From assembly GCA_036785375.1 (NCBI GenBank), contig JAWMAR010000263.1:992001-1056000 (forward strand): a stretch of 64,000 bases of DNA, in the 5' to 3' direction. This DNA is from Leucoraja ocellata. Lineage: Eukaryota. The notes under the pieces are model-generated. The model was not told where the DNA came from. It did not search any database and saw only the letters and a list, made by a program, of their open reading frames with translations. The position numbers and the translations under genes are program-made. Numbering within the stretch: position 1 is the first letter of the stretch; every line of letters begins with the position of its first letter. Shown here in pieces: positions 9,601 to 62,367 of the stretch.

Positions 9601-11456
9601 TTACAAAGCAATATGGAACACCCGATATCGATTTCACTGTGTTTAAGAGGGAACTGCAGATGCTGGAGAATCGAAGGTTACACAAAAAAGCTGGAGAAAC
9701 TCAGCGGGTGCAGCAGCATCTATGGAGCGAAGGAAATAGGCAACGTTTCGGGCCGAAACCCTTCTTCAGACAATTTTGATTTCACTGTATTCAATTGAAT
9801 TCTCCACATACCGATGTATGTCGCAAGAAACCAAATTTGAGGCAGGGGCAATGAATTCATTCCCACTGAATTAGGAAGCGTGAGGGGGGAATCTAATCTA
9901 CGTTTTTTCCCTTTTTTCCTACCTTATCAGGCACTATGGCCTCATCAGTCGGGTACTACGCACATGCCACGATAAATTAAACTACTGGATTGCAGATTTG
10001 AAAAGACCATCACTGGTCCTGGATTGCAGAATTGGGAAGACCTCTGCTGGGCCTGGATTGTCAACAGCGCTATCAACACAAGGACAGCATCCCATCGCAT
10101 ATCCACTAGGGAACATACTTGGCGAACATCAAGAAGTGGGAAGATACCATTCAAATACAGGAACTACATATTCAACTACAACAAACCTGTACTTGAGTTC
10201 TGGCAGGTCTTCACCACAATGAAGGATTCAGCCAGAAGTGCTCTGTCAACCTACTTAACTCGGGCACCAGGACCACAGGCCATAGGGTACCCCACTGGTG
10301 ATCAAATTTAGGAGAGGTTAATCCCCCAGATCCAGGTACACCCAAATCTGGGATGTCAGTATGGACCTGACGTACCTTAGGGGATGGTCACCAGCCAGGT
10401 CCCTCACCCTGGAACAGTCCACCCTGAAGGGACATGCTGATGGCCTTGTCTCAGCACAAAGAGTCCAGTTTTCCTCCATCCAATACGATTGGACAATATG
10501 GTCCACTACACCATGTTACATTACCATTAGGGACTGGGCAAACAGAGCAGACCAGGAACATCAGGTCTAGTCATGGAATTCCGGGCATACCCACCTGAAC
10601 CACGGTTATGTGTCATGACCCACTTATTGAACTACATCGACACAATAAGTAATCCTCGAGGGAGAGAAAAAGCCTTATGGGTCAGCCACAAGAAACATTA
10701 TGGTCGGGTGACGAGCCAAACTATCTCAAGTGGCTCAAGCAGGTACTGGGAGTTGCTGGAGTACATATTAACGTGTATAAATCTTATTCCACCAGGACAG
10801 CATCCACATCAGTGACTAAGAGGATGGACGTGCCAATGGACCACATCCTGGCTACAGCGGGGTGGTCTAGGGAGTATACGTTCCAAACTTTTATAACAAA
10901 CCACTGACAGAACCTGTATCGTTGCAGAAAAAGAATCTGCAAAAAATATATAATTTAAGCCCGGGGGAGCATTTGGTCTTGTTGTTAATAATACCATTAT
11001 TGTTTTTACAAACAGATTCATGGTTGATTACGATAACATACTTCCTCCCTCGAAAGACTTCGGCAGCGAGTGAAGTATGAACTGTTACACGGTTAGAAAT
11101 CACAGAGCTTTAAAATCTTCACGTAGTCACTCACGTGACTCCGAAGTAAAATAATAAGAATAAACGAGAACTTACAAGTTTGAAGTTTGATCTGTATTTT
11201 ATGAGGAGTTACGATGAGGGATTACATGCCCTCCGCTCCCACCCTCAATAATATGGGTCAAACTGATAACTAAGCTCTCCTTTTCTTTACTATGTTTATT
11301 TCAATAACTGTGTCTGTCTGTGATTACACACCGCTGCTTTGCAGTATGTCGCGCATGCGTGCTGAGCGGGTTCTTCACGTAATCCCTTATCATAACTCCT
11401 CATAAAATACAGATCAAACTTCAAACTGGTAAGTTCTCGTTTAATCTCACTATTTT
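6687..11456 (+). mobile_element. DIRS1-type tyrosine-recombinase retrotransposon, full termini, decayed ORFs
   Basis: Left ITR ttttacttcggagtcacgtgagtgactacgtgaag...gcacgcatgcgcgacat; ICR at ~11116-11226 complementary to both ends; right ITR ~11345-11380 plus extension to 11456. RT remnant DINLKDAYYSVPI (8656-8694); YR C-terminus STRTASTS...ILATAGWS...TF (10677-10907). Confidence 0.92.
9641..9771 (-). mobile_element. Short Penelope-derived element nested in the DIRS
   Basis: Matches the terminus of the Penelope fragment at 46133-46225; flanking direct repeat gatttcactgt (9630-9640, 9778-9788). Confidence 0.8.
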
Positions 11457-11780
11457 AGTGTCATCCACAAACTTACTCGGCATGCCTCCCATAATCCCAT
11501 CCAAATCCTTAATGTAAATAATGAACAAAAGTGGACAAACCATTGATCCCCACTGACACTACTCTTTACAGTCTGTGTCTGTAAACCAACTCTCCCCACC
11601 ACCACCACCACCACCACATATATTCTGTCTTCAAGCCAATTTTGCATCCAATCGGCTAGTTCGCCTTCGATCCCATATGATCTGACTTTTGAGACCAGTC
11701 TCCCATGCGATACCATGTCAAAGACCTTGCTGAAGTCTATGTGGATAATGTCAACTCCACTGCTCTCATCATCTACCTAG
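11457..11780 (-). mobile_element. Old CR1 fragment, right part of the CR1 split by the DIRS insertion
   Basis: Minus-strand VSHGRLVSKVRSYGIEGELADWMQNWL; resumes the KFVDDTK motif. Confidence 0.75.
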
Positions 11781-11937
11781 GAATAGTCAGTATGGGTTTG
11801 TTTTTGGGCGGTCATGTCTTATGAGCTTGATTGAGTTTTTTGAGATGATGAAGGTGATAAATGAGAGTAAAGCAGAGGATGGTGTTTACATAGATTTTAG
11901 TAAGGCATTTGATCAATCTCAGGATATTTGCTGGAAC

Positions 11938-12081
11938 NNNNNNNNNNNNNNNNNNNNNNNNNNNNNNNNNNNNNNNNNNNNNNNNNNNNNNNNNNNNNNN
12001 NNNNNNNNNNNNNNNNNNNNNNNNNNNNNNNNNNNNNNNNNNNNNNNNNNNNNNNNNNNNNNNNNNNNNNNNNNNNNNNNN
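11938..12081. other. Assembly gap (144 N) within a CR1 fragment
   Basis: N run; the left flank reads YIDFSKAFD. Confidence 0.99.
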
Positions 12082-14499
12082 ATATAAATAACTTGGACAT
12101 GTCGAATAGTATGTTTCCAGATGAAAGTTGGTGGAGTTGCAAACAGTGAGGAAAGTTGTCAATATATAGTAGGATATAAATCAGCTATAGAAATGGACAA
12201 ATAAATGGATGATTTTGACCTGACGGGGCACAACTCTGTTGGGAATGGGAGAGATGGGTGTACAATCAGGTGGGGGGAGGGGGGGGGGTGGGCAAGGAGG
12301 GGAGAGGGGAGGGAGGGGTATGGGGGAGGAAATGGGCGGCTGGGGATGTTTATAGGCTACTTACATAAAATTGAAGAATTCAATGTCCATACTGTTGGTT
12401 TGAAAGTTACCCAAGCAGAATTGCGGTGCCATCCCGCACACCCAAATGGAATATGAGGTGTTGTTCCACATTTTCTGCTTGGGTAGCTTACAACCCAAAG
12501 TTATGGATGTTGAATTCTCCAATTTTAGGTAGTGAATCTAAAAACTCCACCCCCTTCCCCCCACCCTTTGTAAAGGAGCATCTGCAGTTCCTTGTATCTA
12601 CAGTTTACCTTTCCCATTATTTGAGGACAAATAATGAGGATCTGGACTGCCAGGTCTAAGCATTGCAGATGTACGATGCTCTTCCAACTGTACTACCATT
12701 AACAGTAGCCTGTTCCAATACACAATATTGTTAACCAAGCTCTTCTCAGTGCCAACAAGCTCCTCTTAGTGTCACCTTTCTAATATCTGTCAGATTCAGA
12801 TTCAGATTCAGATTCAGATTCAATTTTAATTGTCATTGTCAGTGTACAGTACAGAGGCAACGAAATGCATTTAGCATCTCCCTGGAAGAGCGACATAGCA
12901 AATGATTTGAAATTAAGTCAGTTAATAAAACAAGACGATAAGATCACCTGGTCCTTTGCCAGTTTGGTTTTTATGGGTGCTTGTAACATGTAATTTGGCC
13001 ACAGTATTTTCATTCGCCACCACAGAGAACATAGTTTCAAAACACTTTGGTACCTCTGATGGGCTCCAGGAATTAATGAAATGAATGAACGTGTTTCTAT
13101 TCATACTGGTCAGTATGAGTGTAAACACATTATTTGTTGCATCTTGTCTAAATCTACTGTCCCTTAACGTAAAATCAGATCCCTATATTCAAACCTGTCT
13201 GATCTTTTATATTTAAGCCATGCTATTTTGATACATCTAGCATTTCATTCCACAGTGTTAAACCTCAACTTTATCACTATATATTGTTTCATTTTATATT
13301 ATAAAAACATGTGCATATGGTTTCCCAATTTGATATCCGTGAGAGTATATTACGTCTAGTGGGACTATGATTTTACGATGACACAAATCAGTGTGAATGG
13401 AAATGGATTTTAATAGACTGATTTAAAATGTACTGCTTTGCAGCTCCATAGACCTTGCCTTTCCTGGATCAAGTGATGCAAACAAACCTATATGTGATGT
13501 AAGTAGCCTGCTCTCACTTTCAACATCATGCAATTTACAACTTTCACTCATCAAACGTTTGCGAAGTGCTGAAAGGCAGGGTTCGCACATAACTGCAGTG
13601 GGTAAAAGCTTGATACATTTTGCCCCATGTTTTGTCCTTGGCCATATGGTTGTTTACATGCTATTATAACTGAAGGGCTTACACTAATAGGATTAAACCC
13701 TAGTGTTCATGGCCCCATATTAAGCTTTAGAAACGGGTCCATCCATGTCATTTTGAAGCAATTCACTATGAACATCAGTTTATGGTGGATATGATAATCC
13801 AGTGAGCTGACACAACCTGTGGTGTGAACTCATGAATAGCACGACAACACTTTTGTATGAATTATAACATTTGCTCTGAGAAGTCACGAGATTGGCTGGT
13901 TCAGTAACATGTGTCACTCAAGTTTTAGTCAAGCTTGATACAGTATTTCCAATGAGTTCCTCATAGGCTAATCCCTGCAGATCATTCACGATGCTTCTGC
14001 AATGAAAGGAAACCTGTCATTCTGCTTTAAAGTTCTGTGCCGCATTTAATTTTGAAGTGCTGTAGCAGAGAAAATCCTGCCTTCCAAGCTTGATATTGAA
14101 GGATGTTGCACTTAAGAAAAATAATACTTCTTCATATTTCCTTTATTCCCACATCATCTTCGGGAGGTGATGTGGTACCAGCAACAATCTAGTGCCTCAT
14201 CATCCCAGCAGCTGTTCTTTATCTCTCAGTTGAGATAAAGAATTAAAATGAAATGCATGAGGAGCCACATTGGAGTTCAATGATGGGAACTGTTATGTAG
14301 TGTGCACCCATGATATCCTGCCTAACCCGCAAAGCAGCCAAACGTCCAACCATTAATAACTCATTCACTTTGACAAATGAAGCCTTTAAAACTGAACACT
14401 GGATGAAACAGCCCAGGATGAAAAATACATACAACTAAGTGGATAGTTTTATCCCTCCCAACACAAAGATATTACATCTATCTCCATATCGCCATGTTC

Positions 14500-18050: not shown

Positions 18051-18700
18051 CCAGAAGGGTTGCTGATGTCGGAGGCTGGGAGTTTGCTGCATGTGGGAAG
18101 GTGCGCTGACTGGAATTGGAGATTGAGAGATTGTTTTGGGGTAAAAAGGGAAACTGAGGCCAGGAGAGTGTTGTGGATGAGAGGAGCAACTGCTAGTGTA
18201 ACTGCAAGTGATGCAATGCCTGCTCTTTACCCTCCCCCCTTACTAGTTCAATTTAGTTTATTACTGTTACGTGCAGCGAGGCAAACATGCCATCACCTGT
18301 TTTTCCACTGTGTCTACTTAATCTGCCATTTTCATGGAGCTGGAGACTTGCACCTCAGGACCCCTAAAGGTCATGCCATGTGCTAAATATTCTCCACTTA
18401 CCTTCCAAAATGCAAAACTTCACACACTTGTCCAGATTAAATAGCATCTGCCGTTTTCAGCATCTGCTATGTTCGGATTAAACCAGCATCTGCAGTTCCT
18501 TCCTACACATTGCGTCAGCTATTCCACTGGCCATGGATCTACATACAGCTGCAACATCTGAAAAGCGAGCCTACTATCTATAACTCCACCAATTTTTGTC
18601 AACTCATTCTGAGATTCTGCGTGTCCTTTAAAACAAAACTGAATGGAGCTAATGGACACTGGCTACCTGAAACAACCACGCAAGCATATCCCCAGACATA

Positions 18701-18859: not shown

Positions 18860-19803
18860 CAGACATAAAGATTTGGCTAATCAGCAAGGAAATGGCAGTT
18901 TAATTGTGCATTTGATTCAATGGAAACCAACGCCATCACAAGTTTAAATATTAAAATTAAATTAAACATAAAACCAATTCAAGTGTAGTCTCTTTGTCTC
19001 AGCCTCCTCGCTGAAGACTCTTGAGCCAAAGACTCACACTTCCCCTCCCCCAGACCTAAACTTCATTTAATCTAATCAAGTCAACTATCCACACACTAAT
19101 TATGATGTCTCAGCCAATCCACTCACTCGCTGGTCTGGCTGCAGCTCCCCTGCAACCTTCTAGGTTATTCCACCTTTGCGGCTCATGTGGCCACCTGTGG
19201 TGATGTCCCCAGTGGACCCTTCACATCAATGTCCCGCAGCAGAGGGACCCTGGCTGTGGTCCTCCTCCTCCCCCCACCACCCCCACCACCCCCCCCCCCA
19301 CCCCACCCCCACCCAGCCTTGCCATCGACTGCACCAACCTAATTGTCCACTGATCACTGCAACTTGGCTGAAGGGTTATACAGGCTTCGTTGATGAAACA
19401 ACACTCCAACACACTCGCCCACCTAAGATATCGGCACAAAAGCTGGAGTAACTACAGCAGGACATGCAGCATCTCTGGAGAGAAGGAATGGGTGGGTGTT
19501 TCAGGTCGAGACGCTTCTTCAGTAATCAATTAGCTCCACATCGGGTGCACAGTCCAGCAGCTACCATCCATTGCATGTCCTTTGCAATCTGATGGGTTGC
19601 ATGAACATATCTCAGTTTCAGCATTTGCAGTTCCATTTGTCTCGGGACTAGAAGAGTTTTTCGACCCCTTCCCCTCCACAAATACGCTGAGTTCCTGAGT
19701 TTATTGTGGCTTCGATTTTTTCCCTTTCCAGGGACGGGGCCAGGTCTCTCCAGGGTATAGGGTTGGCGACAGTGTCTCTCCAGGGTATGGGGTCAGTGGA
19801 TAT

Positions 19804-20220: not shown

Positions 20221-20839
20221 TTCTTGGAGGCGGTGTCGGTATCACTCCTGGAGATAGGGTGAGTGTTTTACCCGGAGCGGGGTTCGCTGTCTCCCCAGGT
20301 TGCGGGTCCAGTGTTTCTCCCGGGAGGTGGGATTAATAACTCTTTAGGGGATGGGTCAGTGTCACTCCAGGGGATAAGGTCAGGGACTTATTTTCCCCGG
20401 GAGTTGGGATCAGTGTCCCCCGAGGGACATTCCTTCTCTCCAGAGACGCAGCCTGTCCCGCTGAATTACTCCAATACTTCGTGTAGATATTGAAATATAT
20501 CACTTTATTAAATATATCACTTTAAAATAGCTGGGTTTTTTCCTTTTTTCCCTCCCACAAATATGCAATATGTGAATATGTGTTTCTGCTCCATTCTGTT
20601 TTGTAGTTTTGTTGCACAATCCGCGAGCATTGGCACTTTTCATTTCACTGCACATCTGGTATGTGTATGTGACGAATACACTTGACTTTGACTATTCATT
20701 TAGGATTTAATCTTTATTTATCAGGATTATGTTTATTAACAATATAGAAAAATAAGAAATTGTATAGAATTACGGATTTTCTGTCTGAACGGAATCAATG
20801 TAGCGGGACCCCAAAGTAGGCTCTTACTGAAGAATCACC

Positions 20840-23800: not shown

Positions 23801-23900
23801 CCCGAGGGTCAGCTTGGCTCCCACATCGACGTCCTCGAAAACGGAGCCACTGAAATCACCACCAGCGTCATCCGAGGCACCGATGAAGACACCGATGACT
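20840..23900 (+). promoter_or_regulatory. CpG-island-like region over the putative promoter and 5' part of exon 1
   Basis: Visibly GC/CpG-rich; GC boxes ggggcgg and gaggcggg at ~20877-20918; TSS not determinable. Confidence 0.6.
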
Positions 23901-29376: not shown

Positions 29377-29790
29377 AGAAAGGTTGAACAAGTTAGGTCT
29401 TTATTCTTTGGAGCGCAGAAGGTTAGTGGGGGACTTGATAGAGGTCTTTAAAATGATGAGAGGGATAGACAGAGTTGACTTGGATAAGCTTTTCCCATTG
29501 AGAGTAGGGAAGATTCAAACAAGAGGACATGACTTGAGAATTAAGGGACAGAAGTTTAGGGGTAACATGAGGAGGAACTTCTTTACTCAGAGAGTGGTAG
29601 CTGTGTGGAATGAGCTTCCAGTGGAAGTGGTGGAGGCAGGTTCAATTTTATCATTTAAAAATAAATTGGATAGGAATGGAGGGTTATGGTCTGAGTGCAG
29701 GTAGATGGGACTAGGGGAAAATAAGTGTTCGGCAAGGACTAGAAGGGCTGAGATCGCCTGTTTCCGTGCTGTAATTGTTATATGGCTATA
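29377..29790 (+). mobile_element. CR1 3' fragment (second subfamily)
   Basis: LGLYSLERRRL.GDLIEVFK...TRGH...FFTQRVV. Confidence 0.9.
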
Positions 29791-30759
29791 TAAACAAACT
29801 GCTGGAGGAACTCAGAAAATCAAGCAGCATCTGTGGAGGCAGAGGGATGATTCTGATTCAGGGTGTCAAGCTGAACATGGACCATCCATTCACCTCCTCA
29901 GATGATAATTGGCCTGCAGAGTTCCACTAGAAGTTTATTTTGCTGTTTAAATTTAAGATTCTCATCAACATTTTTAAGTATTAGTCTAGAGAGCTCTGGA
30001 AAGCAACCCTGAGCTACCATCTACCTCATTGGAGAGATTTGAACTATCTTTAATCGACATTTACTGGACTTTATCTTGCACTAAACCTTATTCCCTTTAT
30101 CCTCTATCTGTACAATGTGGACCTAGATTGTAATTATTTATAGTCTTTCCACCGACTGGAGAGCACACAACAAAAAAGCTTTTCACTGTACCTCGGTACA
30201 CGTGACAATAAACTAAACTATTGTTATAGACTTGCCCCTTTTTAACTTTGTAATCTCAAAACTGCATTCATCCCTCCTCGTCCCACCTTCTGTTTCTTTT
30301 GTGAATATCTGTAAATTTGTGGTCATGCCTTCAGCTGCCCTGATATTATGATGTAAAATTCCTCCCACGTTGATATTCTATTTCTCTCTGCCATGCAAAA
30401 TCTCCCAACTAAATCTCCTGACACTTTTCTTGAAAGACTAATAATTGGCTAACCATTTATTTAGCCTTCCTAACATTACACTTTTTTTTTTAGTTTTGCA
30501 GAGTTTAATTATTGATTATGAATATTCCTTTAGATATTTTACTACATCAATAGAATTGTTCAAATACACAGTTATAATATTGTTTCTGAATATAATATTT
30601 TATACAATGTAGTAAACTCCAAGCAAATGTTAGTCAGTGTCATGTTAACATGGGTTATAGACGGTGAACTTCTATAGGTATTTTTCCACATACACCATTT
30701 CTTCAGTGGAAAAGTTATAGAAATAGGGGAAAAAGCAGCAAGTTACAAGTGATTTTTCC

Positions 30760-31285
30760 AGAATTCCTCGGTCCGCCAAGGCCTACTGGATCCCTCATTT
30801 CCTAACCATTTTAACTCCCATTCCCATACAGACCTTTCTGTCCCGGGCCTCCTCCGTTACCAGAATGAACTACCCACAAACTAACGGAAAGCATTTCATA
30901 TTCCGTTGAGTAGCTTGCAACTTAATAACATGATTATTGAAATCTCTGATTTTAGGTACCCCCCCTTATATAGCCCCAGCCGATTGCACACCCATTTCCC
31001 CACTATTCCACCCCTTTCCCCTTCCTCTGTCCCCTTCCACCTATATCCCTTCGTATTTCACTCCACTTTTTTAAACCTCTAGCCTTTGTCTGACCACCCA
31101 CCTGAAATCACAACCCCTCTCACAGCACCTATCACTTTGCCAGGCTTTGTCCCGCTCCCAATTCTTTTCTAGTTGTCTACCTCTTACTACGATCAGTCTG
31201 AAGAAGGGTCCCGACCAAAAAAGTCACCCCTGTACCCCAGTGCTGCTGCCTGACCCGCTGAGTTACTCCAGCACTTTGTGTTTCG
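30760..31285 (+). mobile_element. Old Penelope 3' fragment
   Basis: Similar to 45840-46225 (cattcccatacagacctttctgtcccgggcctcctcc); ends in ctgaagaagggtcccgacc and the short-repeat body. Confidence 0.7.
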
Positions 31286-39318: not shown

Positions 39319-39439
39319 TATGAACCATAATTATGAGAATGTAGAATTACTTACAGCAGTTTTAAATTGCAATAATATTAGATTATTGTTACTAATTTGT
39401 TCTATGTTTACCTGTTTCTGATAACAAACATTACACAGA

Positions 39440-39565
39440 CAGAAGAAGGGTTTTGGCCCAAAACGTTACCTATTTCCTTTGCTCCATAGATGCTGCCTCA
39501 CCCGCTGAGTTTCTCCAGCATTTTTGTCTACCATCGATTTTCCAGCATCTGCAGTTCTTTCTTAC
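39440..39565 (+). mobile_element. Short Penelope-derived element
   Basis: agaagaagggttttggcccaaaacgtt...ccagcatctgcagttc; ttacacaga on both sides. Confidence 0.8.
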
Positions 39566-39754
39566 ACAGATGATTGCTTTGTTGCAGAATATTGTGCAGT
39601 AACTTAATGTAGCTTTTCTTGGAATTAGGATTTTCAGACTGATTCTGCTTTCTTGACATTCCTCCTTTGTATTTTAATAGAAGCTAATTAACAAATAGTG
39701 GAACTTTTATTCATGTTCATTAAGCTTTTGCTGGTTAATAATTTAGAGTTGCTT

Positions 39755-42622: not shown

Positions 42623-44992
42623 GGACGTGGCGCCGACAGACAAGTAGCCGAACCAAAGAAGTCGAAGCCAAAGAACTGAATAGAAATGAGGCCGAAAGGC
42701 CAAAGAACCGAAAGGGTCCGAAGACGAAACGCCTACTAACCGTAAGGATGGGACGCTTAAATGCAAACTAACTGAAAGGGCGGGACGCCTATAAACCAAC
42801 AAACCGAAAGGCTGCATCATCTTAAAGCAAACTTACCGAATGGCCGCTCTGTCGAAACGCCACCTACCCGAAAGGCGGCGTCGCCTACAGGCCAAAGGAC
42901 TGACTGCCGCTCAACTGAAACGTCCAATAACAGACTTGCCGTTGCCGGGGGACGGGAAATGTCAGCGATTGGTCCAGACCCCCGCGTCCATCACATCACT
43001 GTGAAGGCATGAACATTGTCCCAAACCTCCGCTCCACCCGACCCGCAGCCCGCGGAGGGTGGCCGTGGGAGAGTGGGGGCTGTCCCGAGGGATGCACACC
43101 TTTGGCCACTTTCAACTTGGTGCTTGGGTTCAGATTGCCCAGTCACCTATGGCTTGTGTGGGAAAATGAACCCCACGCTCCCGTCTCCCCCTTCTCTCTC
43201 CCCCTCTCTCTCTCTCCCTTCTCTCTCTCCCTTCTCTCTCCTCCTCTCTCTCCCCTCTTGCTCCATTCTTCTCTCCCCCCCCCCCACCCGCTTTCTCCCC
43301 TTCTCTCTCTCTCCCCCCCCCTTCTCTCCCCCATCTCTCTCTCCTCCGTCTCTACTCGCGGGAGCGTCCCACAGTCATTGACCGCGATGCACCGCCATCG
43401 GACCCCAACCCCCACACTAGGGTGACTTGCCACCCCCTCCCCCGACCCCCGGACTTTGACACCCACACCAGGCTGACCTTCCCCGGCCATGGGAACAGAC
43501 GCTTTATTTATTACCGTCTCGGTGTTTGCGGAACGCACCCAAGCTCCCACGCACAAAACAGGCAGCATCTCTGGAGAGAAGGAATGGGTGACGTTTCGTG
43601 CCGAGACCATTCTTCAGAGTGCGTCTGAAAGGTCTGGACCCGAAACGCCACCCATTCTCTCCAGAGATGCTGCCTGTTCAGCTGAGTTACTCCAGCATTT
43701 TGTGTCTATCTTTTGTGTCCATCTCCGAATGTAAGAACAATTTATACATGTAATACATGATATACACCAGATAAATAACCAGGTATAAATGTATATCATG
43801 TACAGGTGCACAACCTTTTATCCGAAAGCCTTGGGACCAGACACTTGTCGGATTTCGGACATTTTCGGATTTCCGAATGGAAGATTTTTAGCGTAGATTA
43901 GGTAGGTAGCGCGGGCGGCTTGAAAAGTCTGGAGCGACTGCCTCCTCCCTGGAGACCGGGGAATCATTGTAAATCATTGCATAAATGTTAGTCAGTTAGT
44001 TTGGAGGGATTTTATGTGGTGGTGGTGGGGTGGGTGGGTGAAGGGGGAAACTTTAATTCTTAGTCCCCTACCTGGTCGGCGACTCCCAACATCGCGGAGC
44101 TGGGGGCTCTGTCCGGGCCGCGGGCGGCGCCGGTTGGAGCTCCGACCCCGGCAACTCTACCCCTGGCTGCGCGGCTCCAAATCCAGCACCACCCGCGGTC
44201 GGACGCCCGCAGCCCCAGCTCCGCGAATGTTGGGAGAAGGCGGACTCCGCGCCCTGGAACTTACCGCACAGCGACCCGGTAAGGCATTGCCCATTTCCCG
44301 CTGGTATCCCAGCGCTGCGACGCCGCCGACTCGGAGTCAGTGGGTCGGAGCTACAACCGGCGCCGCCCACAGCCCCAGCTGGGAGTTGGCGGCCACAGCG
44401 CTGCGGAGCTTACTGCACGGCGACCCGGTAAGGCATTGACCGCTCCCCGTCTCTCCGACCAGGTAGGGAACTAAGAATTAAAGTTTACCCTTCAACCCCC
44501 CCCCTTCACATAAAAGCCCTCCAAACTAACTGACTAACATTTAAGCAATGATTTACAGATGTTTAAGTGTCTCCCCGGTCTCCGGGGAGGAGGCAGCCGC
44601 TACAGTAGTACAGACCTGGGTTGACCGTGGGTCGTTTCGGGTCAAGTTTGGTGCCAGACGCGAGTTTTGGTGTGCAGACGATATCCTGGAAAAAATGGTC
44701 GGTTTTCGGAGTTTTTCGGTTTCCGGAACACCGGATAAAAGGTTGTGCACCTGTATTACATGTATAAATCGTTCTTACCTTCCGGAACATGGTTAAGTAA
44801 CTGGTTGCATTATTTCCCTGTCCTAACAGCCTTTGTTTAAACCGGTGATTACATCCATTCCATCCCTCCCTCGCAAAGATGTGGTATTTCAATTTGAGCG
44901 CACTTGTTTGATTAGATGCAAGCGGCATGTACGGCGTCTCTCCTTGGCTTCGACTTCTTTGCTTCAGCTTCTTGTCTGTCGGCGCCACGACC
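42623..44992. mobile_element. 2.4-kb composite TIR element with a subterminal repeat array; superfamily unresolved
   Basis: ~46-bp inverted repeat cgtggcgccgacagacaagtagccgaaccaaagaagtcgaagccaa (42626-42671) vs 44944-44989; no clean TSD. Confidence 0.7.
43803..44753. mobile_element. Tc1/mariner/pogo-like MITE
   Basis: TIR caggtgcacaaccttttatccg / cggataaaaggttgtgcacctg, TA on both sides. Confidence 0.88.
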
Positions 44993-45359
44993 GGGTACCG
45001 TGTAGTATGGTGCTGCTTTTTAGGTAAATAAAATGCAGCTAATTGAAATGTAGTTAATTAAATTAATGAGTGCAATTTGTCTGGGAGTTCTTAGTTTCTG
45101 CTCAGAGTGAGTTCTTCCAGGAGACATCATCTCTTGCTATGCGATTGGCAATCGTCCATCAATTCAGCTCCATATTAAAGTAAAGCTTTTATCATAGTGG
45201 AGTCTAATCAATTTCTCATTTTTCCATTCACTTTCCTCACGCTTCACTGACCCTTTAGATTATTTTTCATTGAATTTTTAGCAAGTGGATAGAAGTTGTT
45301 TTAACAAAGGGACAGATATCAACTGAGTCCTTTAAGAGAATAAAGATCTTTGATAATTC

Positions 45360-46225
45360 TTTAGGAAACGGGAGTTCCTCGCTTCCATTATAGATGAGGC
45401 TCTCACTAGGGTCTCACTAGGGTCTCCTCGATATCCTTGTCCCCCTTGTACTCATCTTCTACCCCATTAGCCGTCGCATACAGCATCTTATCCTCGCCAC
45501 CTCCAACGGGATCCCACTACTGGCCACATCTTCCCATCTCCACTCCTTTTTGCTTTCCACAGAGACTGTTCCCTCCGTAACTCCCTGGTCAACTCGTCCT
45601 TTCTCACCCAAACCACCCCCTCCCCAGGTACTTTCTCCTGCAACTGCAGGAGCTGCAACACCTGTCCCTTGACATCCCCCCTCGACTCCATCCAAGGACC
45701 CAAATAGTCTTTCCAGGTGAGGCAGAGGTTCACCTGCACCGCCTCGAACCTCATTTACTGTATCCGCTGTTCCAGGTGTCAACTTCTCTACATCGGCGAG
45801 ACCAAGCGCAGGCTCGGCGATCGTTTCACTGAACACCTCCGCTCAGTCCGTCTTAACCAACCTGATCTCCCAGTGGCCCAACACTTCAACTCCCCTTCCC
45901 ATTCCCAATCTGACCTTTCTGTCCTGGGCCTCCTCCATTGTAAGAGTGCGTCCCACCGCAAATTGCAGGAACAACACCTCATATTTCGCTTGGGTAGCTT
46001 ATACCCCAGCAGTATGAACATTAACTTCAGATAGCCCTTACTTTCTCTCTCCATCCCCTTCCAAGTTCTCCCACTAGTCTTACTGTCTCCTACTACATTC
46101 TATCTTTGTCCCGCCCCCTCCCCTGACATCATGTCTGAAGAAGGGTTTTGACCTGAAACGTCGCCCATTCCTCTCCAGAGATGCTGCCTCACCCGCTGAG
46201 TTACTCCAGTATTTTGTATCTACCA
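45360..46225 (+). mobile_element. Penelope-like element 3' part with GIY-YIG endonuclease
   Basis: CNCRSCNTC, then FTCTASNLIYCIRCSRCQLLYIGETKRRLGDRFTEHLRS...VAQHFN; terminal ctgaagaaggg...gaaacgtc motif. Confidence 0.9.
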
Positions 46226-46266
46226 AAGATCTTTGACGCCAATGTTGTCCTGATATTTGCCTGTTA

Positions 46267-46982: not shown

Positions 46983-47669
46983 TTATGACTTAGCTGTTAT
47001 TAATGGAAATTTGACATCTAATCTTGATTTCCTTTCTTGATCAACATTTTTGAATCACAAAGTGGACCATATAATTGCCGAATTCTCCTAGTATAGAAAG
47101 ATGAGAAAACTGCAGCAATATACATATATATATATATATATACATATATACGTGAAAGAGGGAAAGGGTTGACTCAAGCAAGTAATGGTGTCACAAACAC
47201 ATGGATTAGAGTTTTTCAGAGAAATACAATAATGCAATAGAGGAAATAAAAAAAATATGGATTGAGAAAAGACCTTTAGACGTTCAGCACATTTCAAACA
47301 CAGAAAACTATTATTGGTTTCATAATATACTTTGCTTCTTCTCAAATACATTTTGAGTAATTACAACACCATAGAAGCAACAATGACAAATTGAAAATAA
47401 TTAAAGATGCTGAGGTCTGAAGAAGGGTCTCGACCCAAAACGTCACTCACTCTTTCTCTCCAGAGATGCTGCCTGGCCCGCTGAGTTACACCAGCATTTT
47501 GTGTCTTTGAAGATTCATCAGTGTTAATTTGTAATTTCATTATTTCAGTAAGACATGACCCTTGGCTCAAGTATCAATAGATTAGTACAGAGGAATCCAT
47601 GAGTATGTCATAGAGTCATGGAGCATGGAAACAGGCCCTTCGGCCCAACTTGCCCGTGCTTACCAAGAT

Positions 47670-48313
47670 ACATAGAAACATAGAAACATAGAAATTAGGT
47701 GCAGGAGTAGGCCATTCGGCCCTTCGAGCCTGCACCGCCATTCAATATGATCATGGCTGATCATCCAACTCAGTATCCCGTACCTGCCTTCTCTCCATAC
47801 CCTCTGATCCCCTTAGCCACAAGGGCCACATCTAACTCCCTCTTAAATATAGCCAATGAACTGGCCTCGACTACCCTCTGTGGCAGAGAGTTCCAGAGAT
47901 TCACCACTCTCTGTGTGAAAAAAGTTCTTCTCATCTCAGTTTTAAAAGATTTCCCCCTTATCCCTAAGCTGTGACCCCTTGTCCTGGACTTCCCCAACAT
48001 TGGGAGCAATCTTCCTGCATCTAGCCTGTCCAACCCCTTAAGAATTTTGTAAGTTTCTATAAGATCCCCTCTCAATCTCCTAAATTCTAGAGAGTATAAA
48101 CCAAGTCTATCCAGTCTTTCTTCATAAGACAGTCCTGACATCCCAGGAATCAGTCTGGTGAACCTTCTCTGCACTCCCTCTACGGCAATAATGCCCTTCC
48201 TCAGATTTGGAGACCAAAACTGTACGCAATACTCCAGGTGTGGTCTCACCAAGACCCTGTACAACTGCAGTAGAACCTCCCTGCTCCTATACTCAAATCC
48301 TTTTGCTATGAAA
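47670..48313 (-). mobile_element. Young CR1 3' fragment
   Basis: Open 184-aa ORF nearly identical to the 2400-2929 region; (tagaaaca)n tail. Confidence 0.93.
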
Positions 48314-50006: not shown

Positions 50007-51546
50007 CTGGGAGATTTATCCATCTCATCCTCCATAGAATGTCCAGCACCTCCTTGACTGTAACAAACTGTCCTCAAAGCATCTCCATTATCTATCCCAA
50101 GGTCCCCAAGTTGGGTGCATGGATGTGGTTATGCAATGCTGCTTATAGTTTATTTTCTGTTACTATTGACAGGTAGTTGAGGCAGGTACTATCGTAATGT
50201 TTTAGAAACATTTAGATAGGTACATGGATAGGACAGGTTTAGAGGGATATGGGGCAAATGCAGGAAGGTGGGACTAGTGTAGATGGGACATGATGGCTAG
50301 TGTGGGCAAGTGGGGCTGAAGGGCCTGTTTTCATGCTATAAGGGACTAATTTTGACATAAAAACCAGGAAGTGATCAAAAAGTAAGTGATCGAGGTAAGT
50401 GATGAATTGTAGCTAAAGCTTGGAAGACATACATCATTGTTAAACTGGGCAGTTTATGGTAAGGGTGTACATAATAAAACTGTCATTTTAAAAGATAACC
50501 AGGTAAGAATGTACATACAGTACCTGCATACCAGACTGCTGGCAAACGAGTAACCTTGGCAAGCATACAACTGGAAGGGACTTGCACTTAATTTGCCAAT
50601 GAGACAGTCACCAATTGCATTGTGGTGAAAGCAGTCAAATGCCATTGTAGATTAGCATCTAGTTGCACAACAATATTGAGCTTATTTCAGCGTTTGCCCT
50701 GTTAGGCAGCTTGGCAGGAAGAGGACAAGAAAGATTGATTCGAGCAATTTGACTGTTTTGTTATGGTAATCGCCCATAGCCGGCATATTATAACACAACC
50801 TAGACCTGTCATGGGGAAAGGTATAACTTATGTTTAAGATATGCCCGAGAAATTAGAGTCAATCTAAGTTTAAAACGTATTAAATGCAATGAAGTTTGGT
50901 ATAAAAATGCATAATTGTTTAAATTATAGAACGTTCAATATTCACTGAAGTACTAAGTTACCCTGCTGCATGTATAACCTTGCCTAATCTGATTTGTCTG
51001 GATGTAACGCTTGCTTGCCCTCAAAGTGACAGATTTTCCTCACAAGGTTTTTAGTGATATGAGCTGGTAACTGATGCTGAAATCAGCGGTCATTCTTTGC
51101 TGTAAGGAGCACTGGTTGAGGAAGCACTGTTAAGATAAAGTTTATAATATCACCTTCATGATTTCTTTTGTTCTTTCATCAATGTGTAAGGGAAACCATA
51201 ATTTCTAAACTCCACAGGTGCAAGCAAGCAATGCTAGAGTTTCAATAAGCAACATGACATCAGTAATATAATGTCTTGGGAGACTGATAGATTGTTCACT
51301 CTTAAATGTGTTTCTGTGGTAACTTATTCCTGATATATTTCCTTTATTTTCTTCCTGTGGAATTACCATTTAATTTCTATAAAGCATAATCACATTCCCT
51401 TGTTTCCAGCGATGTGGAAGAGCATTTAATTTCAAAGTCATTGCAAATATTTTTGATGAACATGTTAAAAATAACAGATCAAATACTCAAAGCTACTGCT
51501 AGTTGTCATTGCATATGAAGGTGTCATATCTACAAGAAATAGTTAA

Positions 51547-51885
51547 GAGTGTAGGAAGGGATTGCAGATACTAGTTTACACTGGAGATAGATACAAAATG
51601 CTGGAGTAACAGCGGGACAGGCAGCATCTCTGGATAGAAGGAATAGGTGACATTTCAGGTCGGTTCTGAAGAAGGGTCCTGACCCGAAACGTCACCCATA
51701 TAACAATTACAGCACGGAAACAGGCCATCTCGGCCCTTCTAGTCCGTGCCGAACACTTATTCTCCCCTAGTCCCATCTACCTGCACTCAGACCATAACCC
51801 TCCATTCCTTTCCCGTCCATATAACTATCCCATTCCATTTATTCAGAGATGCTGAGTTACACCAGCATTTTGTGTCTATCTTCTT
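51547..51885. mobile_element. Inverted pair of short Penelope-derived elements interrupted by a CR1 tail
   Basis: Intact ctgaagaagggtcctgacccgaaacgtc at 51666-51693; CR1 3' UTR (minus strand) at ~51697-51835. Confidence 0.75.
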
Positions 51886-53232
51886 AGAAATAGTAAGAGT
51901 ATACTTATTTTAATTCAGAGTTATTTCCAGTAATAAAGAGGAAGACGATTGGACTTTTTTGCCTTCCATCACAGTGAGGAATGTGGGGAATCCGCTGTGG
52001 TGGATGTTTATGTTAACTTTTATGTAGTTGTGTGTCTTGTTGCTTTTTTTTCGTATGGCTGTATGGCAATTCACATATCACTGTACCTTAATTGGTACAT
52101 GGGACAATAAAAGACCTTTGAAACCTTTAATTTGAACTCATTTAAAAATAGATTATTATCAGCATATAAACTAATGAGCAATACTTAATCTGTAGCTACA
52201 GGTAGTTTGTGAGCCTTAGTACTGAATTTGCTCCAAATGCCTATCACATCCATTAAATATGGAAACTGATTAATGCCGTGAATTCCTAAACAGAGATTTT
52301 CAAGTTACAACTTCTCTCTGTAATAACACGGCTAGACCGAGTCTGTGAAATGTTTGTCCATTTTAACTTAGATATGAATTTCATTGACATTGGTTATCTA
52401 AAAATTCACCAGTGATCAGTAGTGCTAAATGCACTCTGTGTTAGTAACAGCACATTGGAGGAGGCAGACAATAAATCATTACTGTAAACAGATGGAGTTT
52501 TTAGCATGACTGGCTGGGTATGAATTTCTAACAACCTGATTTGCTCATTTTGCACCTGCTACTTGCATATAAAACTCACCAAATATACCTTCAGAAACCC
52601 AAATTCATATTTACCGCTGAAAAATATGGGATATTTGATGCACCAAATCTGACCTGCGGGCATTTCTTTTATTGCAACACTCAAATTGCAAACAAGATGA
52701 ATATGCTGGCTCAGACCATCCCTTCATACCGGGTCTATTTTGATGATTTATTATGATTTGGGGGCGGTAGTGGATAGCACTTGTGATATGCTCACTACTA
52801 TGACCCTGATGCACTTCTGGACAGTCTTTGGCGTCTCCTGTTGGGGTCAGCGCAATATTATGGTCCTCAACATCCAAACAGACAAAACCCAATGGATATA
52901 TCTGCAAAGTAGATTTTTGCTTCAGATTTATTTGTAACCCCCTTGAAGTCAATAGCCTCAAACTGACGTCATGTTCCCTGGATGCTGTTATTATCCACAG
53001 CGTATCCAAGACTCCAGTCATTAAGAACAGAGTGTATTAAGGGTCACAAGTGTCGGAGTAACTTAGCGGGTCAGGCAACACCTCTGGAGAACATGGATAG
53101 GTGATGTTTTGGATCGGGACCTTTCTGTAGACTGATTGACTATAAAGGTTTTTGTTATCGTACCAGTGCTCAATCCTCTCACTCAATAACTATAACTCTA
53201 CTCTCTACAGTAACTAACATAGAGACAGTAAG

Positions 53233-53361
53233 TGTTTAAGAAGGAACTGCAGATGCTGGAAAATCGAAGGTACACAAAAATGCTGGAGAAACTCAGCGGG
53301 TGCAGCAGCATCTATGGAGCGAAGGAAATAGGCAATGTTTCGGGCTGAAACCCTTCTTCAG
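53233..53361 (-). mobile_element. Short Penelope-derived element
   Basis: Near-identical to 9641-9771; flanks atagagacagtaag / atagagatagtaag. Confidence 0.82.
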
Positions 53362-56357
53362 ATAGAGATAGTAAGATATATTTTAGCATTTAGAATCTGC
53401 TCTGTCATTGAATGAGAATAAGGATGACCTTTATTTAGCTCCATCTTGGCTTACAAAGAAGCAGGCATAAAATTACTAGCTAAGCCAGACATATTCAGCT
53501 TGGTATTCTATCATGTGAAAATCAGGATTGAGCTGTACAGATATATGTGGAGAAGGCATTAGGAGGACTGTTATTCTCACAACTTTTGAGAAGCGGGACA
53601 GAACCACACAATAAAATAATCATGCATGGGTTCTGATGGAGTAAGTTTGATTGGCCAATTTTTTTCATTCTGAAATTTCTTATGCACCAAAGAGCTATCC
53701 GGAAACTCCAAAAAGCCAAAAATATTTGCCTTTTGAAATCTACCATTCTGAAGTAGATATACATTACAAGTTTCTAAACCAGTGGCTAGTTTGTTGAATG
53801 GTTTGTTTCATGGAGTGTGATTTTCTGGTCAGAGGTTAAGACGCCACTACTCGATCTGTCTGCAGAACACATATATCACATCAGTGGATTATTGAACCAG
53901 TATGTACCAGCACAGAAACCAGACAGAAGCCTATATGAAAATAGAGTGAAGTGGTAACAGGCCACTTCACACCAGTGGGAAACTAAGTATGGGAATCAGA
54001 TCTGTTTTGTACAATTACCAAATATTATTAAACACAACAGCCGGCAGCTCAACTCAGTTTCTTCTCAGATGGACAAAGGGTTCCACAGATACATTAATGG
54101 ATTGCCACAGCTGTTATAGTTAGGTTTATAGTCCTATTTTATTTAAATATGCTTTTCTCCTTTCATAGTGCCTCCAGTAACTATAATCTAGACATAAAGA
54201 TATAATTCCTGCTGCAGGAAGGTAAATGCAAAATATAATGCTAGTTATATTAATTCATAAAGTTGAAATAAATTAAACATGGTAGTATGTTCAATCTGAA
54301 AAGTAGAGCATTTTTGATATTTTTGTACATCCGTCAATGTAAATCACTTCAGAGATAAGTTATCACGGTGACTTTATCGCTATCAAAGTACTGTATACTA
54401 ACTATATGGAGCTAATTTGATGACTCTAAATTAAGTTTTAAATGGTAGAAGCAGAATTGTCTATTTGCCAATAACGATTCCTTTAGCAAGAACCTGGGTG
54501 TGATTATTATAACATTGACTTGCCTTATGCAACAATTAATGAACATTTACATGAGAGAATAACGTTTTGCTTCAGCAACAGCCCCTGAAAAAAAATCTTT
54601 TGTTTAATACCTCTAAAAATGTAATTATTATTGAGGATTATTCTTGTCTGTCGTGCGGGTTAAGTCTCTCTCTAGTTATTTGTGGCAGTAATATTGATGG
54701 CCCATGCAGTGCCTGATGTTTTGAGATCGGCACAGAAGTATTGACAGTTGAGACATTAGTCCTGTAAGTTTGTTGAGTAATTACTGGGAGATCTATGGTG
54801 CATTCAATTTTAGGACAAATCTTTTCTTCAATGGAAGAATTCTATGAAATAAAAATGCTGAATAATGCAACATGATAATTGATGATGTAAAGCAATAGAC
54901 TTTTGCTACATGCCATGATAGATGATAATAATACTCAGAAAAATCATTTCCCATTGACAGAGCATGATTTTATGAACAGTTTAAAGTTTACCGTTGCCTG
55001 TACACCAATATTCCCATGTTGTCAAGTGCATAATCTGTATTCTGACTCCATAACAAAGGCATATCTTCAACCAATTCTACAGTATATATATATATATATA
55101 TATTGTTCAACTCTGCAAATTCACAAGGCAAGCATGCCACCGACATGCACGCATAAGCATCTGAGTGCCAATTAAGCATTCAGAATTTGATTTTCATATT
55201 TTCTGAATTTCTGAAACAATCGATGCACTTTCTTCATTGATAAATCTGTGTTTCCTGCTACAGCGATTTTGTTTTCCCACTGCTTTGTCCTAATTAAATT
55301 TGGTGGTGAACTGAGGCAAACACCAAGTATATATTGGATTAAAGGCATCTGTATAATGTTAGTGAACTGGGAATGCAAAGAGTAAGCTCAAATCTCACTT
55401 GGATCAATAAATCTAAAGTAAACTGTTGGTATCTGTGCAGGTATAGGAGCTTGTGAAGCCGTTAAACTTGCAAAGATCCCAGTGTGTTCACTAATCTCCT
55501 TACCTGGTGTGGTCTAGACCTTTCTCAAGTTCCACACCATTACAATTTGCTCTTTAACTGCCCCTATCTGAGCGGTGCTGGTAATGGCCATTCATCTCAT
55601 TGAGGCTCCAGAATGCAATTCTCTGCTGCTGCTGCTATGTGACTTATGTCTATTATCACATCAGATAGGGGTGAGCTGGTGAGGTGGAATGACTGCTCTC
55701 TGTGAACAAAATTGCTCTGGGCTTCTGCTACCCCGACTATTTCCTTTGAGATTTGGTCATTGTCAACCGAATCAAAGAAGAACAGCCCACCAAAGATGAT
55801 GGGGTTCGTAAAACATTTTACAAGTACAAGGAGCACTTGAAGACCTGTTTTATGGTGCCATAAATCAAACTGGTAGAAAGAGGCATTTACTGTAACTCAC
55901 TGAAAGGTCTAATAGCAAGCAGAGACTGTAAATACATTCTTAAGTGGCATTTAATGGATTCCGTGTCCGGTTTAAAATAATAGAGAATGCTCTATAATTA
56001 CCGAGACCTTCTGAAACATCTGTTTTAAGTTTTTTTTTGCAGTTGTGCTTATTCCTGTTTGATAGTCTTTGATGGGGAAAAAAAAATTGTGTGCATTTGT
56101 TTAGATGTTGGTCTGTTTTTGTGTTTGTTTCCTTATGACATAGAAGGAGGCCATTTGGCTCATGAAGTCTATTGCAGGTTTCAGAACAAACCCACTCTCC
56201 CACCTATATTCCCTTCACCTGCACACTCATAATTGCCGATCCAAGAGAAGACTTTGATCTTCGCACCAGACCTACAGTGAGACTAAATTATAGGAGCCTA
56301 TTCAACAAACAACTAGTATATTTTTGGGATGTCGGAAGAAATCAGAGCACATGGAGG

Positions 56358-56662: not shown

Positions 56663-56724
56663 CATGGAGGAAACCCATAGGGAGAACATGCAAACTCCGC
56701 ACCAGAAGCCAGAATGGAGCCTTA

Positions 56725-57358
56725 AGGGCCTGTCCCACTTACGTGCCCTTGACACGCAAATTACGCAATTTCATGTGTACGAACAGTCGTCTGGAGCACG
56801 TGACGTCATTTGAAGATGGACACAAAGCTGGAGTAGCTCAGCGAGACCAGCAGCATCTCTGGAGAGAAGGAATGGGTGATGTTTCATGTCGAGACTCTTT
56901 TTCAGTCTGAAAAGAAGGGCCTTGACCCGAAACGTCACCCATTCCTTCTCTCCAGGGGTGCTGCCGGTCCCGCTGAGTTGCTCCTGCATTTTGTGTCTAT
57001 CTTCAATTTTCTTGGCCCCGCTCTGGAAGTGGGAGTGGGAGTGGGGCGGATCCAGACCGCAACGGCCGTGAGCTCCAGGCCGAGTTCGGCGATCGTTTGC
57101 CTGATTCTGCTGCTGTTGAAGGTGAGACATTGCGTCGCACCAGGGTCTTGGCCCTGTCCCACCTTGGCCGTCAGTTATGCGACAGGCCGTTGGCACGCGA
57201 AGATTTCGGAGCCCCACGCGATGTCGTGCACAACTACATACCCCTCCGTGCTGCTCAATGGGACCGGCCCCGCATGGCCACACAATGCCCGTGCACCTCA
57301 ACGTGACCACGAGGTCGAGTAATTTGCATGCCAAGGACACGTAAGTGGGACAGGCCCT
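56725..57358. mobile_element. Harbinger-like MITE containing an inverted Penelope-derived pair (~56810-57003)
   Basis: TIR agggcctgtcccacttacgtg; TTA TSD. Confidence 0.88.
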
Positions 57359-59835: not shown

Positions 59836-60230
59836 TCATAAGATAACTTTTATTTGTTGCATTCTATCAATATTCCTTTGAGTTGTTTACAGAAGGTTCC
59901 ACCTGGACTGTTTTGATGAATGTTGCCCAACTAGAACTACTTAAAACTAATGTCAACCCCGATATGAATGAAAGGTGCAAATATTGCAAGGCCTTACAGA
60001 GTACGCCACTGTCACTTATCCGAAATATGATTTCTAACATGTTCCCAAAGGTGAGAGGGGCCATTAACAAAACGGAAAGGCAACACAGCCATTTGTAGGG
60101 AGGCTACTATGTAATGAAGCAGAGTTTTTGCATGATTAATAACTAAACAACTTTTTACATTGACCTTTATTATTAAATCTTCGACGATCCTAATTTTCTT
60201 TGCCTGTTCTGATCTCAACTCTGTTTCTCC

Positions 60231-60446
60231 TGCCCCTGTCCCACTTATGAAACCTGAACGGAAACCTCTGGAGACTTTGCGCCCCACCCAAGGTTTCCAT
60301 GCTGTTCCTGGAGGTTCCCAGAGGTTTTTGTCAGTCTCCCAACCTGCTTCCACTACCTGCAACCGCCGGGAACCGCACGGAAACCTTGGGTGGGGCGCAA
60401 AGTCTCCAGAGGTTTCCGTTCAGGTTTCCTAAATGGGACAAGGGCA
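60231..60446. mobile_element. Hairpin MITE with ~85-bp TIRs (ctgtcccactt family)
   Basis: gaaacctgaacggaaacctctggagactttgcgccccacccaaggtttcc mirrored at 60378-60428. Confidence 0.8.
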
Positions 60447-60681
60447 TAATAGCCAGCTATCATAATTAAAATATGAAAATGCAAAGAAATGCAAATCTTG
60501 AAAAATTGAAATCCTGAAGGGCTTGTTCTGATATTTATTCATCTTGGGTTGATATTTCTTGGCTCTCTGTTCAGCCTGACAGAGGAGCGGAAGATCTGAA
60601 CCAACTATCTCCCTATGTCAGTGTGTAGGAAGGAACTGCAGATGCTGGTTTACACCAAAGATAGACACAAAATGCTGGAGT

Positions 60682-61095
60682 AACATTAGTCAGAACAATC
60701 ACATTTTAAGTAGCTCTTGTTAGGCAGCATCAATCAAAACATTCCAAGTGGAACCTTCTCAACACAACATCCAAGGAATGTTGATAGAAAGCAGCCATTT
60801 ACTAGAAATGATACCGGGAGAGAAGCACAAAATGCTGGAGTAACTCAGCGGAACAGGCAGCATCTCTGGATAGAAGGAATGGGTGACGTTTCAGATGGAG
60901 ACCTTTCTCCAGAGATGCTGCCTGTTCCGCTGAGTTACTTCAGCATTTTGTGCCTCTCTCCCGATATCATTTCTAGTAAATGGCTGCTTTCCATCAATAT
61001 TCCTTGGATTTGTGTTGAGAAGGTTCCACTTGGAATATTTTGATTGATGCTGCCTAACAAGACCTACTTAAAATGTGAATGTTCTGACTAATGTT
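60682..61095. repeat. Long inverted repeat (arms 60682-60870 and 60908-61095)
   Basis: Arms are reverse complements with scattered mismatches. Confidence 0.93.
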
Positions 61096-62367
61096 CTTCA
61101 GAAGCAGTTTCTCTTTAAGGAACAGTTGTTAATTGAAGGAATTTCTTGCACTATTTTCCACAAGGAAGTGCAATTGTATTCAGTTACGAGACGGAAATCA
61201 AATCTGATGGGATTGGTTATATACTGGATCTTTTGAATGACTGTGGCAGCTGGTTGAATGGCGATTGCCTTTGCAATAGCTTCAACATAACATCACCTGC
61301 AACAGCTGCAGGCCAGCTGGTCAAGGTCCCTAAATTTAATGGCCAATCCTTCCTCTATCTCCCTTCCTCACTAGCGTTGGTAAATACATTATTTTCCAGT
61401 GAGCTGCAGAGCTAAGTAGACAGTTAATGTTGGCCTCCATCTTCTGAGTTGATCAGGGTGGCAATCGCTGTGACTTGTTTGACACAGTTGAAAAAAAGTC
61501 AGAGAAAAAGTCAGTCAAAACTCGTCCTTTAAATCACAGCTGCAAGGTTTGGTCACAGTTAATAATCTGCTCGTATATCTGCATATGGACAATGCTCCTT
61601 GGGTGAGATGTCAGAAGGCTGGCAGCGGCATCCTTGAAATGATCACTAACATGAGCAGGAGCAGAAGAGCGAGCTTAAAAACAATCCTGTGTTTAATTTC
61701 ACAATTGAACCACATTGTACACTTGGTTACCCAATGTGGCAAGACTGAGTTTTAAAGCAACCACTTTACGTTTCAGCTTGCCAACTGCTTGAAAAAGATA
61801 CTCTCCTTGCAATATGAGCCCCAAATTGTTACGTTCAGCATTTTAACAGTGCACCATGAGAAAATATCTCAGCAGGATTTGTATTGGGATTTCATGTGAA
61901 GTTTAAGCAGCATTGAGAGGTAAAGAGATTAAAGGTAGTGTCAGCATTTTACATAAATAGCATAATCTCTCAGATTTTTATACGTCACTAATTAATCACT
62001 ATTTTTGCCAGTTAATCACAATCTTTTAAAAATCTATTCTTGATCATTTGTATAATGGGTTTCCAAGTTTTAAATTTTGGCAGAAGATAGACACAAAAAG
62101 CTGGAGTAACTCAGCGGGACAGGCAGCATCTGGAGAGAAGGAATGGGTGACGTTTTGGGCAATTTTGGCAGTTTAAGACCTACCGCCTTCATGTTTGCAG
62201 ACTCACCCGAGTCAGAATGTTTTGGGTTCAACTCTGACTCCAGAGATCTTTCCATTAAAATCTAAACCAGTACTACTGTGCTACACAGACAGTGCTGCAC
62301 AATAGGAGGTTCAGACTTTAGGATGATACACTTAATTGGAGCCTTTTTGCATTCTCAGGTGGGCATA

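Follow-up and report, generated by a model that had tools for sequence, protein, structure and literature searches.

Minimal hammerhead ribozymes in the pseudo-long terminal repeats (pLTRs) of Penelope-like elements (PLEs), single motifs dispersed through a genome, solo pLTRs, inverted copies and tails have all been described; as the ribozyme class and its link to PLEs have been known since 2014, one more such motif is not surprising in itself. Here we analyze 64,000 nucleotides of the skate Leucoraja ocellata (contig JAWMAR010000263.1, positions 992,001 to 1,056,000; hereafter the window, numbered from its first letter), a stretch of repeat-rich vertebrate DNA in which a short unit, identifiable as the 3' end (pLTR plus optional tail) of a Neptune-type PLE, recurs as arms at a density of roughly one per 3 kb. 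The interest lies in the junctions: the copies begin just before the hammerhead motif, not at its cut site. Both the role of PLE hammerheads and the origin of head-to-head insertions are stated as open in the literature, and a genome of this kind is a large natural sample that can show whether cleavage ever defines an inserted end (here in 0/19 arms) and whether inverted pairs result from two-strand priming on sense RNA.

The published minimal hammerheads of PLEs combine CUGANGA and an extra nucleotide (a listed trait) with a G10.1-C11.1 pair, GAAA, a palindromic 15.2-16.2 without loop III, an NUH and a short helix I, for which a length of 2 bp has precedents; they occur mostly as single dispersed motifs, with some opposite-strand pairs. 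The skate motif shares these properties, but both its helix I (2 bp) and its stem II (4 bp) are near the lower limit of the published lengths, and the flanks of the unit are not AU-rich. Dimer cleavage was reportedly described by Lunse et al. in RNA Biol, as cited in a review. The 2014 species lists (Table S1 and the alignment of Fig. S3; PMC4209133) include no cartilaginous fish. General PLE anatomy, including that of endonuclease-bearing Neptune elements (Craig et al. 2021, PMC8557442; Arkhipova et al. 2013, PMC3846280), is recognizable in the window: a Cys linker before a C-terminal GIY-YIG domain, 5' truncation, an inverted 5' copy, an optional 30-40-bp tail at one end, target-site duplications (TSDs) of 8-14 bp, solo pLTRs and palindromic junctions. 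Unlike in those accounts, solo and inverted terminal pieces dominate here (19/22 arms), with one fixed start at the hammerhead 5' edge.

Two further systems invite comparison. The Anolis element PAc (Frangieh et al. 2024, PMC11167929) likewise has two 3' ends a tail apart (its tail spans two internal reverse transcriptase (RT) start sites), an AC-rich long end and an uncleaved hammerhead kept in the copies; however, it belongs to another clade, Poseidon, and its open reading frame starts at stem II, whereas that of the skate family starts outside the window. Non-LTR retrozymes (Cervera and de la Pena 2020, PMC7229834; Li et al. 2026, bioRxiv 10.64898/2026.07.22.740005) are also short, non-coding, pLTR-related and furnished with a type-I hammerhead, but they are head-to-tail tandem repeats processed to circles, with canonical hammerheads that have helix III and tertiary contacts, whereas the skate units lie scattered as solos or in head-to-head pairs, end away from the cut site and have no helix III loop and a 2-bp helix I. 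Our literature searches gave no description of this family, or of ends fixed at the hammerhead 5' edge; Repbase/Dfam and the chondrichthyan retrozyme families of Li et al. may already hold the family; a full-text search for the motif letters returned only papers unrelated by title, and a literature search for Penelope with shark or skate gave no description of the family by title or abstract.

The terminal unit and its parent element

A profile hidden Markov model (HMM) built from 13 copies (which match by construction) detects 25 segments at a cut-off of E<=0.01 in the window and 0 in the reversed window. Of these segments, 22 are arms of subfamilies A and B, one continues an arm that is interrupted, and two are arms of greater age and divergence. 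The arms group into 17 insertion loci (Table 1). All 16 positions at which the initial annotation had placed copies are covered by HMM segments; the unit is smaller than the 130-160 bp proposed there, measuring ~90-100 nt in a short form and ~130-135 nt in a long form. Subfamily B consists of three copies only, all solo, long, TSD-flanked and starting at the same edge, two of which (53231..53362 and 9639..9771) show 5 differences in 132 nt. As the endonuclease-linked copy at 46133 has some subfamily-B letters, B-like ends exist on coding elements. Same-strand neighbors at 53362 and 53132, 230 nt apart, are independent insertions with the motif broken in both.

Two endonuclease-linked copies both terminate in the unit with a short 3' end. 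The more complete one, 870 bp long and flanked by a 12-bp target duplication, upholds the Penelope origin proposed earlier: it runs from a CX4CxxC linker through a GIY-YIG endonuclease (45708-46031, broken by upstream stops; Pfam E=1.1e-4) and an 80% pyrimidine 3' untranslated region (UTR) to the unit, with the hammerhead site at 46135, ~100 nt past the GIY-YIG stop. In the older copy, the second terminal-repeat site is at 31197. In a tblastn comparison, a Stegostoma protein matches 45357-46028 at 52%, and the best relatives of the GIY-YIG frame are from Leucoraja erinacea (77%) and Rhinoraja longicauda (75%), followed by rays and sharks. As in Neptune elements, the C-terminal GIY-YIG is preceded by a CX2-5CxxC linker. 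This linker marks PLEs of the Neptune or Nematis clade, and the vertebrate sample of Li et al. (bioRxiv 10.64898/2026.07.22.740005) yielded Neptune and Poseidon only; from linker and survey together we infer that the family belongs to the Neptune clade.

Two observations pertain to the same family. A GC-box-like stretch at 46110-46128 precedes the putative start of the endonuclease-linked copy by 10-25 nt, and 12250-12600 holds an older inverted pair of PLE endonuclease 3' fragments with a tail-like stretch at the end and without the hammerhead region.

The predicted minimal hammerhead

Both motifs quoted in the initial annotation are present letter for letter at 51666-51693 (+) and 9742-9769 (-). 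A descriptor modelled on the published minimal hammerhead matches three intact sites (9769-, 46135+ and 51666+) vs. a mean of 0.04 per window in 200 simulated windows, of which 8 contain one site and 0 contain two. The consensuses of subfamilies A and B both contain the core, the extra A, a 4-bp stem II with tetraloop, GAAA, the ACGU palindrome, an NUH and a 2-bp helix I; the CUGANGA-H ... GAAA-N-N'-U-H core with palindromic 15.2/16.2 is present in both consensuses and in three copies. In a 17-row alignment, helix II (4 bp, with G10.1-C11.1 and the extra nucleotide at 9/10.1) is paired in 83% of cells and helix I in 61%. In a Stegostoma PLE, read-through of the protein shows this motif at the equivalent place, between unrelated flanks. 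The identification of the motif as a predicted ribozyme, a minimal type-I hammerhead like those published for PLEs, is supported: as had been proposed, the motif fits the published PLE consensus and carries a palindromic ACGT. The extra A and the ~2-bp stem I, which had been noted as caveats, are both seen; the former is normal for the PLE class, and the latter has precedents in it. That some copies have core mutations also holds; only three copies pass the descriptor.

An Rfam scan of the window returned no hammerhead family at E<=1, a result that is uninformative because the motif is without loop III, and a scan of bacterial and archaeal genomes for the motif gave 0 matches. Two other CTGATGAG motifs (9948- and 35412+) were tried as hammerheads and fail the descriptor; a 24-mer containing CTGATGAG is common to 9939-9962 (-) and 35398-35421 (+).

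Consensuses A and B differ at 0/11 core positions and at 11/60 positions downstream (P=0.19; B rests on three copies), both retain 11/11 core positions, and the four A/B differences inside the motif all keep the structure. Across copies, with the terminal columns of six rows dropped by hand (junctions, indels), non-CpG mismatches amount to 7/142 in the core vs. 68/866 downstream (P=0.30). The suggested comparison of core with flank thus finds fewer mismatches in the core, but the difference is not significant, and the suggested covariation analysis finds no excess, as covariation in the 17-row alignment is no greater than in shuffles (291/500). Folding z-scores of the unit are unremarkable; G12, within a CpG, is mutated in 5/17 cells, as neutral decay predicts. 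Given the non-significant mismatch difference and the covariation not above shuffles, the inserted copies look like products of neutral decay; selection on the hammerhead of the source element is suggested. In the predicted folds, the core strand forms a helix with the pyrimidine tract further downstream (-10.1/-10.6 kcal/mol, vs. -2.9/-3.5 kcal/mol for helices I and II).

Ends of the copies and head-to-head pairs

Arm starts were scored by script relative to C3, a frame in which cleavage would put the 5' end at +28. Upstream PLE sequence is lacking from 19 of the 22 arms (short arms). Nine of these 19 start at -3..+2, or 11/19 with two junction arms read by eye; the clustering has P about 1e-6 under a uniform null, and solo loci alone give 5/8 (P 2e-4). 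No short arm (0/19) starts at the cut site, the nearest one being at +31; the start assigned by script to the tail-only arm at 18458 (-87, score 19) is spurious. The junctions in the window show 5' ends fixed at the 5' edge of the predicted hammerhead, so that the earlier statement that copies end at the motif stands for its 5' edge, with the whole motif inside, and fails for the cut site. The UTR upstream of the edge is 74-80% pyrimidine and terminates in CAG; no shared upstream exon precedes the solo copies. A HMMER protein search gave seven matches, of which four are repetitive proteins that were set aside and three, in other records, are read-throughs of the unit; in the three peptides, one of which contains an inverted arm, the similarity ends immediately ahead of the Ser-Leu codons at this edge, which lends weak, indirect support to a fixed edge. 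A word-indexed protein search with a 49-amino-acid read-through scored 0/20 candidates.

At the other side of the unit, 7 of the 22 arms extend to within 0-1 nt of the long end; another 12 fall short of it by 34-45 nt, and the alignments of the remaining 3 end 54-69 nt before it. The two fixed 3' ends, separated by 34-45 nt, are recognizable as the optional PLE tail. Direct repeats of at least 8 bp (8-14 bp; boundaries by eye, +/-12 nt slack, one mismatch permitted from 10 bp) flank 7/17 insertion loci vs. 10/400 random intervals; flanking duplications of 8-14 bp had been noticed in the initial annotation.

Head-to-head arrangements occur at five loci, plus one older locus. In both TSD-flanked pairs (18701 and 51546) a long arm is combined with a short one, an arrangement already described for PLEs. 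The arms of the 18701 pair carry different sequence variants, read by eye, which favors two templates. At 60619-61095 the ~190-nt arms are 95-97% complementary, with an extra long-tail piece at 60619-60684; part of the duplicated flank has a paralog at 59858-59946. The right arm of the 51546 pair is interrupted at 51700-51827 by another repeat. This repeat and one at 29668-29785, which adjoins another PLE pair, are 96% alike, and we take both to be CR1 3'-end-like.

Table 1. Copies and fragments of the PLE terminal unit in the window
Positions	Strand	Feature	Flanks and other details
9639..9771	-	Solo subfamily-B unit, long form, intact motif 9742-9769	14-bp TSD (1 mismatch), 6-nt filler at 5' end
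18458..18509	+	Tail-only fragment	HMM segment
18701..18859	.	Head-to-head pair, center deleted; long arm (-) and short arm (+)	8-bp TSD
19430..19523	-	Solo subfamily-A unit, short form, start at C3, core mutated	
20428..20486	+	Fragment, start 3 nt past predicted cut site (sole start near cut site)	
29788..29936	.	Older diverged head-to-head pair	
30816..31285	+	Second, older endonuclease-linked copy, unit 31190-31285, core mutated	Endonuclease remnant 30816-30916, pyrimidine-rich UTR
39438..39568	+	Solo subfamily-B unit, long form, core mutated (U4, G12)	9-bp TSD
43545..43712	.	Head-to-head pair; arm starts -1 and -2	4-nt filler joins arms
45354..46226	+	5'-truncated Neptune-type PLE, short-end unit	12-bp TSD 45342-45353 / 46225-46236
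46135..46162	+	Predicted minimal hammerhead of endonuclease-linked copy, stem II closed by G-U, 2-bp helix I	Descriptor match
47415..47506	+	Solo subfamily-A unit, short form, start at -2, G12 mutated	TSD not found
51546..51885	.	Head-to-head pair; long arm (-) and short arm (+); intact motif 51666-51693	11-bp TSD
53044..53139	-	Old diverged unit retaining ~7 nt of upstream PLE sequence	
53231..53362	-	Solo subfamily-B unit, long form, palindrome broken at 16.2	14-bp TSD (1 mismatch)
56810..57006	.	Head-to-head pair, both arms short, overlap at interrupted palindrome TCAG-T-CTGA	TSD not found
60619..61095	.	Fold-back palindrome; 3' end of antisense unit pairs internally, copied back through ~130 nt of flank	
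62084..62160	-	Solo subfamily-A unit, start inside stem II	11-bp TSD

Origin of the insertions

We favor, with a probability of about 0.6, a reading in which the copies are dispersed pLTR-end insertions of a Neptune-type PLE, produced by internally primed reverse transcription on uncut RNA that stops at the hammerhead 5' edge. The PLE's own RT/GIY-YIG protein would nick the target DNA and prime cDNA inside a template RNA uncut by the ribozyme, at a site either ~95 or ~130 nt downstream of the hammerhead; synthesis would halt at a set position 0-3 nt upstream of C3, for which the simplest candidate is the 5' end of the transcript at TCAGT, a motif that we take to be initiator-like. One such cDNA would yield a solo copy, and a head-to-head pair would arise if both target strands were primed or if the cDNA folded back at its 3' end. 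The hammerhead would be carried along, probably as a weak, dimer- or protein-dependent ribozyme in the source RNA, where a competing helix with the downstream CCUUC tract may hold it off, and would decay neutrally once inserted. An Inr-like TCACT has been noted in Adineta pLTRs; in Anolis, PAc RNA is primed internally, both target strands are extended, uncleaved RNA is the main substrate and hammerhead cleavage needs protein (PMC11167929).

Several points weigh against this reading. The RT-coding part of the family is not in the 64-kb window, no TSD was detected at 10/17 loci, and 8/19 short arms start elsewhere, further in. The transcription start is read from a 5-nt motif, whereas in D. virilis transcription starts ahead of an intron that has its 3' end at helix I; because of that intron, and as the skate edge reads pyrimidine tract plus CAG, a splice acceptor or an RT stall site is possible at this position. 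Arms of a pair share too few private variants (one each) to separate twin priming from fold-back, one window cannot separate a full-length RNA from a solo master as template, and the biochemistry is borrowed from PAc, an element of the Poseidon clade.

It is conceivable, and we put it forward tentatively, that the copies in the skate genome, expected to number in the thousands, are a fossil record of PLE “strong-stop” cDNAs, primed internally and run off at the transcript start. The transcript would then start 3 nt ahead of the hammerhead core, and this would account for a helix I of 2 bp. If this is true, two sense RNAs on both target strands would yield pairs once thought to need an antisense template, and the 135-nt unit may propagate as a minimal promoter-plus-RT-site element for which ribozyme cutting is not required.

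The same junctions could be accounted for, though we consider it somewhat unlikely, by ordinary 5' truncation of long cDNAs, with the clustering caused by RT stalling, by a splice acceptor or by self-priming at the TCAG-T-CTGA palindrome (as proposed by Arkhipova et al. 2013, PMC3846280), and with some solos left over from deleted inverted pairs. As a rule, PLE insertions are truncated at the 5' end and have inverted junctions that are palindromic; in the window, the arms of the 56810 pair overlap at the palindrome, fold-back is clear at 60619, and the pyrimidine-rich UTR ending in CAG would suit a stall or an acceptor; but the arms of the 43545 pair (-1 and -2) are joined through a filler and not through a palindromic overlap, TSD-flanked solos start at the edge without an inverted remnant, and the shared exon that splicing would place before solos was not found. 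A separate non-autonomous family is possible: the 135-nt unit could be a self-propagating element (a “pLTR-SINE”) with an internal promoter and an RT start site. Its transcripts would run into the flank and would serve the Neptune protein as templates in trans, with no ribozyme cleavage involved. The excess of arms without upstream PLE sequence, the uniform B copies, the promoter internal to the pLTR in D. virilis and the sufficiency of pLTRs for mobilization in trans in Adineta all agree with this account. However, looking for a solo lineage by private variants absent from coding copies, we find B letters on the endonuclease-linked copy as well as on the three solo B copies; three copies are too few, and run-off from a full-length RNA predicts identical ends, so that we regard such an element as unlikely.

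Two further explanations concern the ribozyme itself. The motif may be a look-alike that does not function, or a relic that was already dead in the source element: few copies pass the descriptor, neither the mismatch comparison, the covariation, the folding z-scores nor Rfam singles it out, and 8/9 predicted Xenopus retrozyme dimers did not cleave (bioRxiv 10.64898/2026.07.22.740005). We nevertheless think this improbable, given the intact core and structure-compatible differences (4/4) of both consensuses, the equivalent motif in the Stegostoma read-through peptide amid unrelated flanks, and a position where PLE hammerheads sit. Less probable still is the retrozyme-like family proposed in the initial annotation, in which tandem transcripts would self-cleave as dimers, circularize and re-insert. 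The motif does match the PLE minimal hammerhead, and animal retrozymes have been argued to be pLTR-derived and are reported in the one chondrichthyan sampled; yet the window contains no head-to-tail array and no circularly permuted arm, no short arm starts at the cleavage site, published retrozymes have canonical hammerheads with tertiary contacts, and motifs in head-to-head pairs, being on opposite strands, cannot dimerize within one transcript.

Beyond the PLE copies, a 1716-amino-acid FREM-family exon (Frem_N plus 12 cadherin-like repeats) is located at 21011-26161 (+). Frames at 35729-36115 (-) and 52611-53036 (-) have no Pfam match and presumably resemble DIRS RNase H and RT. Two decayed U2 small nuclear RNA copies, at 8269-8388 and 8922-9092 (+), score under the Rfam gathering score. 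Long interspersed element (LINE) RT fragments are present at 565-2534 (+), 47660-48313 and 62367-62930, with 3' parts 90-97% alike, and short inverted-repeat elements, possibly miniature inverted-repeat transposable elements, at 60231-60446 and at 11085-11457 / 34076-34438.

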